Assembly: GCA_964016885.1 (NCBI GenBank)
Contig: OZ024743.1
Coordinates: 37,882,001-37,946,000 of the forward strand
Length of the DNA stretch: 64,000 nucleotides
DNA from: Eledone cirrhosa
Lineage: Eukaryota
Direction: 5' to 3'
Both the position numbers and the translations under genes were made by a program. Shown one piece after another: positions 37,513 to 61,828 of the stretch. How positions within the stretch are numbered: position 1 is the stretch's first letter; each line of letters opens with the position of its first letter. The notes below the pieces were generated by a model. That model saw nothing but the letters and a program-made list of their open reading frames with translations, ran no database searches and had not been told where the DNA came from.

Positions 37513-38173
37513 TTTCGTTTCTGAATTTGTTTAGCAAGATTCTTTATCTGAAATCGTGTGTTGAAACCGATATTGTTATACTTTGGGAGGGTCATGTTGC
37601 CAATAAGAAACACACGCACCAGTTGCTTTCACTTCAATTTATTATATATTTATAAAATTTATAAATTTATATATTTATAATTTTATAAATTTCTGGTTGG
37701 TTCCACAACCAGATAATTGTTTATATATAGTCATAGTTCTTTCGTCACATACTCTGTGACCTCTTCAGTGACTGGGGATTCCTTTCTTTGTTTCTGTGCC
37801 TCTCCTTTGTTCTGTCCTACGCCATTTTGTTTCTGTGTGTGTTGTGTGCTCAGTCTGCGCATGCGCCACATCCGGATGTCTGTGTGTGTTTATGTTCACA
37901 ACACACACACAGAAACAAAATGGCGTAGGACAGAACAAAGGAGAGGCACAGAAACAAAGAAAGGAATTCCCAGTCACTGAAGAGGTCACAGAGTGTGTGA
38001 CGAAAGAACTATGACTATATATAAACAACTATCTGGTTGTGGAACCAACCAGAAATTTATAAAATTATAAATTTATAAATTTATAAATTTATAAATATAT
38101 AATAAATTGAAGTGAAAGCAAATGGTGCGTGTGTTTCTTATTGGCAACATGACCCTCCCAAAGTATAACAATA
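37513..38173 (-). mobile_element. Fold-back element, family A, with an HHR in each arm
   Basis: Tail 37513-37569, arms ~37570-37846 and ~37897-38173; in (TA)n. Confidence 0.92.
37972..38016 (+). ncRNA. Minimal type I hammerhead candidate (mirror copy 37729-37773 on minus)
   Basis: AGTCA-CTGAAGA-G-GTCACA(gagtg)TGTGAC-GAAA-GAAC-TA-TGACT; stem III is very short. Confidence 0.65.
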
Positions 38174-38214
38174 TATATATACACTTTTATATATATATAT
38201 TTATATGTATATAT

Positions 38215-38385
38215 ACATGGACACACTAGAAGAGGATGACCAAGGTTAACATATGTTGATGCCCTAAGGACAGACACTGGTCTGTTGGAGATGCAGGATA
38301 TGGCAGCGATAATGAGGGACAGAGACCGCTGGAGTGAACTCGTCCATGGATCTCTGGAATTTTACCCGCCTTAGATAGATAGAGA
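38215..38385 (+). mobile_element. RTE-type LINE extreme 3' fragment
   Basis: Translates GHTRRG*PRLTYVDALRTDTGL..MRDRDRWSELV, followed by a (TAGA)n tail. Confidence 0.7.
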
Positions 38386-38389
38386 GATA

Positions 38390-57164: not shown

Positions 57165-60075
57165 GAATTACTTTGAAATGTTTTGGCCAGTATTGGCCCA
57201 GGCCATGTCTAACTTAATAGCAGCACCTGGCGATGTCTTTCGATTCAGGATTTAGGCACCATGGCCCATTCGAGAAGAGAATTACTGTTTGCGGAGACAT
57301 ATCCGGGTGTGGGTGGTTTGTCCGGGATTACTTGGAGGAATTTGTCCAAAGAATTCTTGAATTGTGTGTGGTCAGTTTCATTTTTGACGTGTCCTGGTGT
57401 GATGTTGAAGAGAGCAGGGCCAATTGAGGTGAAATAATTGTGCCGTATTGTTGTTATGAGTTGCGATTTAGATTTTTATTTGGGACGGATAGCACGGGGC
57501 CCAAGCCTTGGGTGTATTTTGAAGGTGCTGATGAAACATTTTCCATAGCATGCAGATAATATAACGCTCACGGCGACGTTGGAGTGAGTAAAGTTTAAGC
57601 TTTTCTAGTCGACCTCAGTAGTCAAGGTCTGACATGCCATCTATCTTTTTCGTGATTGCCCTTTGGGGAGCTTCAAGTTTCATGATACTTTGTTTCGTGT
57701 GGGGAGACCACAGTGGAAAACAGTATTCAAGGTGTGGTCGGGCAAAAGTAGAGAAGAGAAGGATAATGGTGTGGGAATCTCTCGACTGGAAGGTTCTGAG
57801 GATCCAGGAACACATTCTGCGGGCCATGTCAACTTTGCTGCTTATATGTGTGGCCCAGCTTATGTTGCTGTCCACGGTTACTCCCAAGTCTCTGATGTTG
57901 TTAGATGCCACGAGAGTTTCACCGGAGGGAAGGGAGTACGGGAGTTTCAGAGCTTCCTCTTTTCCAAAGTGGATCAGTTCGAATTTGTCTTCGTTCAGTA
58001 ACATGTTGTTCTTTTCCGCCCATTGGGAAACAGCCAGTAGGTCTGACTGAAGGCTTATCCGGTCATCCACGCCATTGACGACCTTTTGGAGCTTGGAATC
58101 ATCAGCGAAAATTCTAATGTTGCTGTGTTTGATGATGTCAGTGATGTCATTAATATAGATGATGAAGAGAAGTGGGCCCAACACAGTGCCTTGTGGGACC
58201 CCACTACTGACTTTGGCTGGGCTGCACTTGACTCCTTCGACTACAACATGTTGGGTTCTGTTTGACAGGAAGCTCTTGATCCACTGCAGCAGCTTTCCAG
58301 TGACACCAATATTGGACAGCTTTCTCAGTAGAATGTTGTGATCAACCCTGTCAAAGGCCTTGCTAAAATCAAGGTAGATAACATCAGTGTTGGAACCCTC
58401 TCCCAAGGCTCTCAAAATGTCATCAAAGTGATGCAGTAGCTGCATCAGGCAATCCCTTCAATTACAGAATCCAATGCTGGTTGGAGTTCAGCATATTGTT
58501 ACTCTCAAGGAAGTGGGTCATTCGCGATCTCACCACTCTCTCAAATACCTTAATGATATGAGAGGTGAGTGAGATTGGACGGTAATTCACGGCAAGGGAT
58601 TTGTTTCCTTTTTTGAAAACTGGGACAACAGACTGGGATAGAAGGTTTTCTGTCACATATCCAGCATCCAGTGAGTTCCGCCACAGATTGGCAAGAGGAG
58701 ATGCAAGTTGGTGTTGACACGCCTTCAAGACACAAGCAGGGAACCTATCGGGACCTACTGCTGACTTATGCTTGATTTCCTTCATTGCCGCTAAGACATC
58801 AGGGGCGCCAAACGTTATGTCCGATAAGGTGTAATGGGGAGTAACATCGCCGATACAGCCCAGATCTGCCATATCAGGATTGCTGAAAACAGAGCAGTAT
58901 TGTTTCTGCAGTATCTCACCCATGGTTTTAGCATTGTCTTGAAGAGTGCCATTTTCATCAATTAGAGGGCCAACAGTAGAGCCAGTGATTTTGTGTGTTT
59001 TTTCAAGTGAAAAGAACACTTTGGGATTGAGTTTGATCTTCTCAATGGCCCAGGCCTCTTCAGCTCTTCTCTGATTGTTGACGATAGACATCATATTGTT
59101 TTGGAGGTTATGTTTTTTAATCTCTAGTGATGAAGTGGCAGTCAAGTTTATGTGTTGCTGCTGACAGTATTTCAGCTTGTTGATTTTTTTGTTAGTTCTC
59201 TTAATTTTCCTGATGAGCGTTTTTCTATTTCTTGGGATTCTGCTCTTAGATATGTTTCTAGTTCTTAATGGGGTGTGTTTTGCACATATGTTTGTAACAG
59301 TGTCCACAAATGTCTGCCAGAACTTTTTGATGTTAGTGGGTGTATGAGTGTGCATGAAGGACCAGTCGACATGTGCAAGATCATGACTGATCGCTTCCCA
59401 GTTTGCATTGTGGAAATCCATAGCGTCAAACGGATGGACAGGAGAGATGACATCGGGTTTGTATATTGGACGGTGGAATATCAGATCACAGAGAACCATG
59501 TCATGATCAGAGAGTAGAGTTTTCTCCACTGCAATATTGTGGATATTGTCAGTGTGATTGCTGAAAATTAAGTCTAGGACGTTTTTGTGGCACCTCGTTG
59601 GTTCGAGCACCAGTTGGGACAGGAAGAAATCATCCATGAAGTCAAGAAGCGATTCCACTGCTTCCCTGTCAGAGGTTGAGGCAGAAGAACCTGGTGGCAG
59701 GCTGTTTGTGGACCAGTCAACTCCGGGGAGGATGAAGTCCCCCATCATTAAGAAGTTGTCAGGGTGACACTCTTGGATGAAACACTTTATGTTGTTGAGG
59801 CATTCCTTGAAGCATGGTAGAGGCGTTTGGGGTGGCCTATAGAGCCCAACTACTATTAGGTTGTTGGTTTGACTGAATACAGTGACTGCTTCGCAGTACC
59901 ATTAGTGAATATGTTCATAGCCTCTGTTGAGAAAGAATTATGGACATAAATGGCAGTCCCACCCTTTCTTCTGCCAGCGCGATCAGCACGGATGGCTTTG
60001 ACTTTTTTTTTTCACTTTCACCTCGGCTTCCAAGTGGAGGTTACTGAGATGGGTTTCAGTGAGGACGAAGAAAGG
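57165..60075 (-). mobile_element. CR1-clade LINE, 5'-truncated, few disruptions
   Basis: APE part YRPP..MGDF..LDLIF..SDH; RT NYRPISLTS, YLDFSKAFD, GVPQGTVLGPLLF, FADDSK, RDLGV, RPHLEYC (ORFs 58462-59748 and 57615-58445). Confidence 0.9.
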
Positions 60076-60302
60076 GATGTGTGTATATATATATATATAT
60101 GTATATATATATATATATATATATATATATATATATATATATATATATATGTATATATATATATATATATGTATATATATATATATATGTATATATATAT
60201 ATGTACATATATATATATATATACATGTATATATATATATGTATATATATATATATATATATATATATATATATATATATATATATATATATATATATAT
60301 AT

Positions 60303-61828
60303 ATTAAGTGTAATGAATTCTTTTACAATGGAATTAGCTCAAAAGGAAATATTCCTGAGCCGTGTATAAAAGTAATATATATGAGTAATATATATGATGA
60401 AACAGATACCAACACATCTGTATTTATATTGCAAAAGAAAATTAGCCAGAATGAAGAATATTAATTATTTTACCACAGAGAGCAGTGGCATGATATTCCT
60501 ACACTTATACACTTATTCATCTCGAAACATGTTTGGATTTTAAGGTTTAAACTTATCTACGGAACAGGTTTGATTTTGAAATTTAAATATGTATAAACAT
60601 CATAGCCATTTGGCAGCGCAGCTAGTTTTTGTCGATTTATTATTTTAAATCGATGTGGACGAACTGTGGTAAAATAATTAATATTCTTCATTCTGGCTAA
60701 TTTTCTTTTGCAATATAAATACAGATGTGTTGGTATCTGTTTCATCATATATATTACTCATATATATTACTTTTATACACGGCTCAGGAATATTTCCTTT
60801 TGAGCTAATTCCATTGTAAAAGAATTCATTACACTTAATATAACTGCTCCTGGTTGAGCTGTAATTCGCCTCATATATACGACTGTTATTTCTAGCAGTA
60901 CGGTTATGAGACTAGCTTGAATCTGTGAACCTATGTGCGTCACACAGTCTTTTAAATTATTTAGAAGTGAAGCTTATCAATTGTCTCTGGATGTTTACTG
61001 AGGAGAGCAGTGGCATGATATTCCTACAGTTATACACTTATTCATCTCGAAACATGTTTGGATTTTAAGGTTTAAACTTATCTACGGAACAGGTTTGATT
61101 TTGAAATTTAAATATGTATAAACATCATAGCCATTTGGCAGCGCAGCTAGTTTTTGTCGATTTATTATTTTAAATCGATGTGGACGAACTGTGGTAAAAT
61201 AATTAATATTCTTCATTCTGGCTAATTTTCTTTTGCAATATAAATACAGATGTGTTGGTATCTGTTTCATCATATATATTACTCATATATATTACTTTTA
61301 TACACGGCTCAGGAATATTTCCTTTTGAGCAAATTCCATTGTAAAATAATTCATTACACTTAATATAACTGCTCCTGGTTGAGCTGAAATTCGCCTCATA
61401 TATAAGACTGTTATTTCTAGCAGTACGGTTATGAGACTAGCTTGAATCTGTGAACCCATGTGCGTCACACAGTCTTTTAAATTATTTAGAAGGAAGTGAA
61501 GCTTATCAATTGTCTCTGGATGTTTACTGAGGAGAGCAGTGGCATGATATTATTACACTTATACACTTATTCATCTCGAAACATGTTTGGATTTTAAGGT
61601 TTAAACTTATCTACGGAACAGGTTTGATTTTGAAATTTAAATATGTATAAACATCATAGCCATTTGGCAGCGCAGCTAGTTTTTGTCGATTTATTATTTT
61701 AAATCGATGTGGACGAACTGTGGTAAAATAATTAATATTCTTCATTCTGGCTAATTTTCTTTTGCAATATAAATACAGATGTGTTGGTATCTGTTTCATC
61801 ATATATATTACTCATATATATTACTTTT
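60303..61828 (+). mobile_element. Retrozyme-like tandem array (~525-bp unit, ~2.6 copies) with a 5' inverted segment, in (TA)n
   Basis: gagagcagtggc recurs near 60478, 61003 and 61532; 60303-60478 is the reverse complement of ~60663-60839. Confidence 0.9.
60991..61065 (+). ncRNA. Minimal hammerhead candidate (second copy ~61520-61594)
   Basis: CTGAGGA-GAG..(long loop)..CTC-GAAA-CATG-TT with palindromic AACATGTT; stem I is weak and G-U rich. Confidence 0.55.

Follow-up and report, generated by a model that had tools for sequence, protein, structure and literature searches.

Hammerhead-bearing fold-back repeats in (TA)n runs of Eledone cirrhosa: truncated Penelope-like element ends and a non-coding, retrozyme-like family that shares their insertion signature

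A 64,000-nt window of the Eledone cirrhosa genome (contig OZ024743.1; genome size, 3.0 Gb) is rich in (TA)n runs, and these runs harbor several families of fold-back repeats, which we refer to as A, A', B, D, and C, the last being an array of 525-bp units. Here, we report that coding Penelope-like elements (PLEs), cut short to their 3' ends, account for A, A', B, and D. The 525-bp array is a closed repeat without coding capacity that has a predicted hammerhead ribozyme and probably owes its insertion to an enzyme of this same kind; we put the probability of this reading at about 0.8. Self-comparison and reading of the window placed the named elements where an earlier, sequence-only reading of this DNA had located them, in (TA)n and with the layout it described: two inverted arms, one of which continues as an unpaired tail. 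Tails measure 59 bp in A, 58 bp in A', 99 bp in B, 84 bp in D, about 60 bp in the array, and 68 bp in a coding PLE in the same window.

The coding origin of A, A', B, and D was evident in copies elsewhere in the genome. Exact patterns retrieved 16,475 matches for A, 11,760 for A', 4,962 for B, and 827 for D, and reversed controls retrieved none. Among the first 30 genome matches per family, scored by homology to a coding reference, the repeat ran on into a reverse transcriptase (RT)/GIY-YIG endonuclease (EN) frame in 22 (A), 20 (A'), 2 (B), and 4 (D), with one further D match reaching the edge of its locus. The pattern anchors lie 187, 486, 1144, and 1434 nt after the stop codon, respectively, and the 3' untranslated regions (UTRs) of B and D measure 1.1 to 1.4 kb. 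When long minus/plus pairs were picked on purpose in search of full B and D elements, Hydra-type frames were found in five of seven B loci (including the reference, L114) and in all seven D loci. Window copies are 89 to 100% identical to the UTRs of the coding references. In full elements the tail runs on into the 5' end of the next copy, and an A' tandem of 4.15 kb exists. None of the four families is a closed non-coding unit independent of an open reading frame (ORF). An apparent link from B to Neptune (L038/L039) was rejected; the two are neighbors within TA runs, and their sequence is not contiguous. The sequence-only reading had offered extreme truncation as an alternative, to be preferred if every family proved to be the terminus of a full-length PLE. 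Because A, A', B, and D run into coding PLE frames, this holds for four of the five families but not for the 525-bp array. The four are 5'-truncated, 5'-inverted 3' ends of abundant coding PLEs and, like the coding element of the window, ordinary members of known PLE clades.

All five families carry the same insertion signature. Of 104 distinct two-armed insertions, 81 were scored at both ends, and 77 of these paired a tail on one arm with a boundary on the other, as did 38 of the 40 insertions of PLE ends and 39 of the 41 of C-type units. Outer ends are fixed: each family has two of them, 58 to 99 bp apart, with variable inner breakpoints and (TA)n flanks. Both flanks were TA rich in 69 of the 104 insertions, and at least one was in 98. 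The longer arm among the 77 was the tail arm in 27 and the boundary arm in 34; the arms were equal in 16. In several insertions the tail arm held only part of the tail, with no overlap with the other arm, and one-armed truncated copies were common. Among 100 B matches listed, both arms carried the same 4-nt variant in 20 of 21 pairs (chance, about 0.27), so the templates came from one source or the arms were homogenized later.

From these arm statistics we infer that two cDNAs are primed, that each reaches its own length independently, and that they are then joined head to head. The PLE RT-endonuclease would nick both strands of a TA run, and cDNA would be primed at two neighboring start sites on the RNA, as for the lizard Poseidon protein, which in vitro cuts and extends both DNA strands from two start sites that delimit the tail (Frangieh et al., PMC11167929). 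The two cDNAs would grow towards each other and, on joining, give one arm with the tail and one without; early stops would leave short stumps. A different origin of the inverted arm, self-priming by fold-back of a single nucleic acid rather than two priming events, was proposed by Arkhipova et al. in 2013 (PMC3846280). The near-constant sharing of variants between arms and the 16 equal-armed insertions speak for it, and simple fold-back may explain the equal-arm class. It does not account for the 34 insertions in which the boundary arm is longer, since copying back a tail-started cDNA cannot produce these. Nor does it fit well with the finding that either arm can be the longer, with tail arms that hold only part of the tail and do not overlap the other arm, or with one junction that joins arms of two families. 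We therefore regard self-priming as an unlikely general explanation.

Hammerhead motifs were sought with a type I descriptor (stem I, CUGANGA, stem II, GAAA, stem III, UH). Eleven matches were found in the window, compared with a mean of 0.075 and a maximum of 1 in 40 block-wise dinucleotide shuffles; they fell in A (three), B (two), the coding PLE (two), D (one), the array (two), and a further family at 56704 (one). The hammerhead-like folds claimed earlier for A, B, D, and the array were thus recovered in all four. Across fetched loci the descriptor matched 456 times, and the same loci read in reverse gave no match. Loop III is self-complementary in most of the hammerhead families, a feature described for dimer-cleaving minimal hammerheads (PMC7229834; PMC7761336). 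The family at 56704, absent from the sequence-only reading, is a TA-flanked repeat (56259 to 56797) akin to D's motif, with copies in other loci and a hammerhead with palindromic loop III at 56704 to 56758. At least 10 more hammerhead families were observed in TA runs of the fetched loci, with stem I covarying between families and loop III mostly palindromic. A looser first descriptor gave 13 window matches, including an isolated hammerhead-like match at 28688 to 28755 with an 8-bp stem I, seen by that descriptor only and without a copy in the fetched loci.

Family C was found to be of another kind. Its pattern matched 114 times, on many chromosomes; 65 fetched loci represent about 43 distinct sites. 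What preceded the start of the unit was its own end in 23 of 28 distinct cases, an inverted arm or end fragment of its own in 4, and host DNA in 1; a shared foreign sequence preceded none of the 28. The longest stop-free frame in a C dimer spans 77 codons. Block maps of C showed no long terminal repeat (LTR) layout; primer-binding sites and polypurine tracts were not searched for. Its relatives are C2 (258 matches; all seven picked tandems gave units of 456 to 502 bp), C5 (652 matches), C4, and C3, the last as a single copy, and all are collinear with it across the whole unit. C, C2, C4, and C5 are 48 to 73% identical. Stem I is rewritten between these subfamilies yet paired in each, the tail hairpin is kept, and C2 and C5 mostly have a GUC triplet; together these features suggest selection on the RNA fold of the superfamily. 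C thus combines a non-coding tandem unit a few hundred base pairs long with a type I hammerhead per unit, as judged by descriptor and covariation, and its copies bear PLE insertion marks, which makes it likely a parasite inserted by PLE enzymes. On this sequence evidence, a non-LTR retrozyme that PLE machinery integrates is the most likely identity of C. Its RNA, multimeric or circular after hammerhead processing and still carrying the docking region with its two sites, would serve as a template in trans, so that arms of several units in phase would result, whichever PLE clade supplied the enzyme.

Further observations were made on this superfamily. The C2 hammerhead, at L255:1563-2063 and at other C2 loci, combines a GUC triplet with a strong stem I of 8 bp. 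Loop II of C2 and sequence upstream of stem I are complementary over 9 bp; this putative pseudoknot was counted without a null and serves only as a lead. The single C3 copy carries a C3U plus G8A pair. A C4-subfamily insertion with an inverted head and tail end lies 3 kb to the right of the window (L191:3090-3995). One 536-bp contig, from three runs of unrecorded type, wraps round the C unit and has no bearing on expression. An apparent link from C to Hydra (L119) again proved to join neighbors within TA runs whose sequence is not contiguous.

C might instead be the tandem pseudo-LTR (pLTR) of a coding PLE not yet found, its arrays having grown by unequal crossover after insertion. This route has been proposed for vertebrate retrozymes (bioRxiv 10.64898/2026.07.22.740005), one C array spans more than 20 unit lengths, and only a small fraction of the genome was included in the partner search. 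Against it stand the dispersal of C over many chromosomes, arrays that end in phase at the two fixed ends, an inversion flanked on either side by arms of several units, and four subfamilies whose units are all closed and free of ORFs. We judge this origin improbable.

Several results nevertheless weigh against trans-mobilization of C by a PLE and against parts of the wider reading. No coding PLE sharing the C unit was detected in 313 loci (1.09 Mb, partly overlapping, of 3.0 Gb), so that trans-mobilization is read from insertion shape. Searches of the fetched loci with blastn and two nhmmer profiles gave only further non-coding relatives, the 39 candidates scored of 1306 in a DNA search were all C copies, and a 4.7-kb same-strand pair held no PLE frame. 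The C hammerhead itself is weak, with G-U at three of the five pairs of stem I and a GUU triplet, and it is missing from the minimum-energy fold. In C2, core position 4 is an A in 15 of 18 copies. Hammerhead calls were based on our own descriptor and covariation, without support from Rfam, which reported no hammerhead among the 150 of 249 window matches listed, none at gathering score in eight loci, and nothing of the kind in the units of C and C2 at E ≤ 10; its matches were sub-threshold ones of miRNA/snoRNA type, with no ribozyme. As to the insertion signature, 23 of the 104 insertions had an end that could not be classified, loci were picked by exact patterns and mostly from the start of one chromosome, the equal-armed class fits the published self-priming model, and concordance between arms could have come from gene conversion.

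The sequence-only reading had favored an independent guild, in which all five families are minimal RNA parasites mobilized by a Naiad PLE. Their shared layout, TA targets, and hammerheads are what such a guild would display, and many B and D copies are shorter than 300 bp and cluster at one inner breakpoint. However, A, A', B, and D form nested truncation series into coding frames, which refutes the proposal for these four, and the inner junctions of short stumps differ between copies; the presumed helper is also a Hydra element, and Naiads are reported to be without canonical hammerheads (PMC8557442). A guild of all five is therefore very improbable, and the part that stood, an independent RNA parasite, applies only to the 525-bp array and its relatives. 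The earlier view that the repeats are PLE-type and hammerhead-bearing rather than miniature inverted-repeat transposable elements (MITEs) was borne out: although inverted ends and TA flanks would suit MITEs of a TA-targeting DNA transposon, that origin is refuted by asymmetric ends in 77 of 81 insertions with varying interiors (symmetric terminal inverted repeats around a fixed interior were not found), by the common one-armed truncated copies, and by four families that lead into RT frames.

The coding element (42267 to 48960, minus strand) is a 5'-truncated PLE with a tail at 42267 to 42334, a microsatellite-rich 3' UTR, and an inverted arm at 46442 to 48960. Its earlier assignment to Naiad did not hold. 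Naiads are described with an N-terminal endonuclease and without canonical hammerheads (PMC8557442); here, the RT fragment (45687 to 46441) precedes the GIY-YIG domain (45394 to 45738) on the minus strand, and both arms carry a hammerhead with a 6-bp stem I and a GUA triplet (42356 to 42394, minus; 48901 to 48939, plus). According to Craig et al. (2021; PMC8557442), the Hydra clade has a C-terminal EN, a CxCX5C linker, CxxC, canonical hammerheads, and (TA)n targets. The window element has this linker and CxxC, and its GIY-YIG domain was detected by Pfam at E = 0.005, short of the cut-off. The copy is broken, leaving CxH unreadable in frame, and its truncation has removed RWK and DKT; what remains, beginning with the RT core, resembles Hydra-1_Amil by eye. 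The parents of B and D have CxH (as CRH), RWK, DKT, and a divergent RT4 (TMGS). Linkers of the Hydra-type elements read CNCLNKEAC, CNCRNPESC, and CNCRNKSNC, CxxC is CDLC or CKLC, and CCHH is lacking. By motifs and domain order, we assign the coding element and the B and D parents to the Hydra clade. A second, decayed Hydra-type PLE at 24033 to 26259 (plus) has a long Asn/His/Thr-rich stretch between RT and endonuclease; an in-frame insert of similar kind is present in B's parent.

The PLE into which A and A' continue is a different one. Its endonuclease is C-terminal, its CX4CX2C linker is short, and its histidines are of CCHH type (motifs CIDKKCIIC, YIG, and EH...H...H). Pfam matches to RVT_1 (E = 7e-4) and GIY-YIG (E = 1.4e-4) both fell short of curated cut-offs. 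The parents of A and A' combine the C-terminal EN, reduced CX2-5CxxC linker, and CCHH by which Nematis is recognized, and we term them Nematis-like by layout and motifs.

In the window, the truncated copies differ in how much of the parent they retain (no strand is assigned to these composite features as wholes). The A' stump at 1567 to 1663 consists of a partial inverted tail plus the last ~55 bp of a Nematis-like coding PLE, its hammerhead gone, and that at 27907 to 28155 has an inverted arm with the tail and a short boundary arm, cut downstream of the hammerhead. The A stump at 37513 to 38171, which corresponds to the 3' UTR of a Nematis-like coding PLE, has an inverted arm with the 59-bp tail and a forward arm to the boundary, with hammerheads at 37734 to 37768 (minus) and 37977 to 38011 (plus); in another, at 55387 to 55621, neither the tail arm nor the boundary arm is long enough for one. 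The B stump at 44494 to 44829 lies inside the microsatellite of the Hydra element's UTR and derives from the 3' end of another, second Hydra-type PLE, with its 99-bp tail at 44733 to 44829 and hammerheads at 44550 to 44594 (minus) and 44632 to 44676 (plus). D had been listed as a short element; it in fact spans 52975 to 54529, comprising an inverted arm with the 84-bp tail (52975 to 53159) and a right arm of ~1.37 kb of 3' UTR from a third Hydra-type PLE, broken at about 53766 to 53950 by another repeat and carrying a hammerhead at 54423 to 54471 (plus). The C insertion (60304 to 61827, plus) has an inverted tail arm (60304 to 60478) followed by 2.6 head-to-tail, ORF-free units of 525 bp up to the boundary. 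Its predicted minimal type I hammerhead, with palindromic loop III and a weak, G-U-rich stem I, lies at 60998 to 61058 (plus), with a second copy at 61527 to 61587.

Elements B at 54867 and A at 55060, previously treated as separate, are one joined structure (54867 to 55350). A B arm with tail (minus) meets an A arm that runs to the boundary (plus; hammerhead, 55151 to 55185) with a 3-nt overlap, giving one tail and one boundary. This head-to-head joint of Hydra-type and Nematis-like PLE 3' ends was 1 of 115 head-to-head junctions in a first count and is unique in the genome; A and B share 15 nt around the hammerhead core. The chimera may reflect a single event that involved two PLE clades, or a pair of neighboring insertions and a deletion.

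Other repeats were also observed in the window. Two unequal-arm fold-back elements, at 506 to 1045 and 29141 to 29930, form a mutually related family with copies elsewhere, and no hammerhead was found in these window copies. The 3' end of a restriction-like-endonuclease long interspersed element (17406 to 19649) is repeated in tandem at 19289 to 20727, as three copies of 480 bp separated by (AAT)n. At 49176 to 51890 lie 4.4 copies of a 615-bp non-coding unit, >99% identical to many dispersed copies (329 matches), with one end fixed beside (TA)n and the other variable. No inverted arm, tail, hammerhead, or Rfam match was found in this unit, which is a young multi-unit mobile element of another type.

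For annotation, these results identify as PLE ends tens of thousands of this genome's fold-back repeats that resemble MITEs or miRNA hairpins; the arm statistics also bear on how PLE inverted repeats form. Since the two-ended signature specific to PLEs is present in C, together with a tail hairpin that is conserved, the partnership is directly testable by bringing together purified PLE protein and an RNA of defined sequence, 525 nt long. More tentatively, C and its relatives could represent an old, parentless lineage of ~500-nt ribozyme RNAs that has kept only the hammerhead and a PLE docking hairpin and whose circular or multimeric RNA a dimer of PLE RT-endonuclease, priming at two sites, writes into (TA)n. 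The B/A chimera would then join RNAs of two PLE clades in one integration, and C2 would have a working hammerhead with A4, aided by the loop II pseudoknot. On this reading, the junctions of C and its relatives would be a direct genomic footprint of animal retrozyme integration.

These elements can be compared with known systems. An inverted copy and a one-sided tail are drawn as general PLE features (PMC8557442), and our insertions agree with the published accounts of PLE tails and inverted pLTRs (PMC3846280; PMC11167929) in having an inverted, 5'-truncated copy and an optional one-arm tail equal to the stretch between RT start sites; here, the pattern is counted over 104 insertions and extends to a non-coding family. 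Like Hydra PLEs, the Hydra-type elements have a C-terminal GIY-YIG, RWK/RWR, DKT, TMGS, CxCX5C, CxxC, CxH, no CCHH, a hammerhead, and (TA)n targets, but their 3' UTRs are 1.1 to 1.6 kb or more, some with long microsatellites, and their tails are 68 to 99 bp versus the 30 to 40 bp quoted. The A and A' parents share with Nematis/Neptune-type EN+ PLEs the C-terminal EN, the CX4CX2C linker whose spacer is short (a layout shown for Nematis in Fig. S2, PMC8557442), CCHH-type histidines, and a 3'-UTR hammerhead, while their RT4 motif, GAAIGVSIAG, is unlike the Nematis and Neptune rows compared.

Family C recalls the non-autonomous Chlamys elements, such as MRC1 (PMC8557442), which are also PLE-type with pLTRs and multicopy head-to-tail insertions; those, however, are green algal, have 3' ends like autonomous families, and mostly lack canonical hammerheads, as described in that paper. 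Trans-mobilization by pLTRs has precedent (PMC3846280). For animal retrozymes, PLE mobilization has been proposed from shared hammerheads and co-occurrence (PMC7229834; PMC7761336) and a PLE role argued from co-occurrence, pLTR similarity, and vertebrate pLTR phylogeny (bioRxiv 10.64898/2026.07.22.740005), although a 2020 review noted no motif that reveals the mobilizing element (PMC7761336). A term search of the text available for these three sources found no inversions or tails at retrozyme insertions, nor was a retrozyme insertion signature reported in the literature searched, which was mostly without subscription papers and Repbase/Dfam entries. As in the metazoan non-LTR retrozymes of the same three sources, C consists of non-coding head-to-tail units with one type I hammerhead each, low GC content, dispersed monomers and multimers, and co-occurring PLEs. 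It departs from them, as far as those descriptions go, in its unit length of 500 to 525 bp, the A at core position 4 of C2, the lack of a detected parent pLTR, and insertions that are truncated and inverted at the 5' side, have two fixed ends, and target TA. What is new here is a probable retrozyme superfamily of 500- to 525-bp units with a direct PLE insertion footprint.

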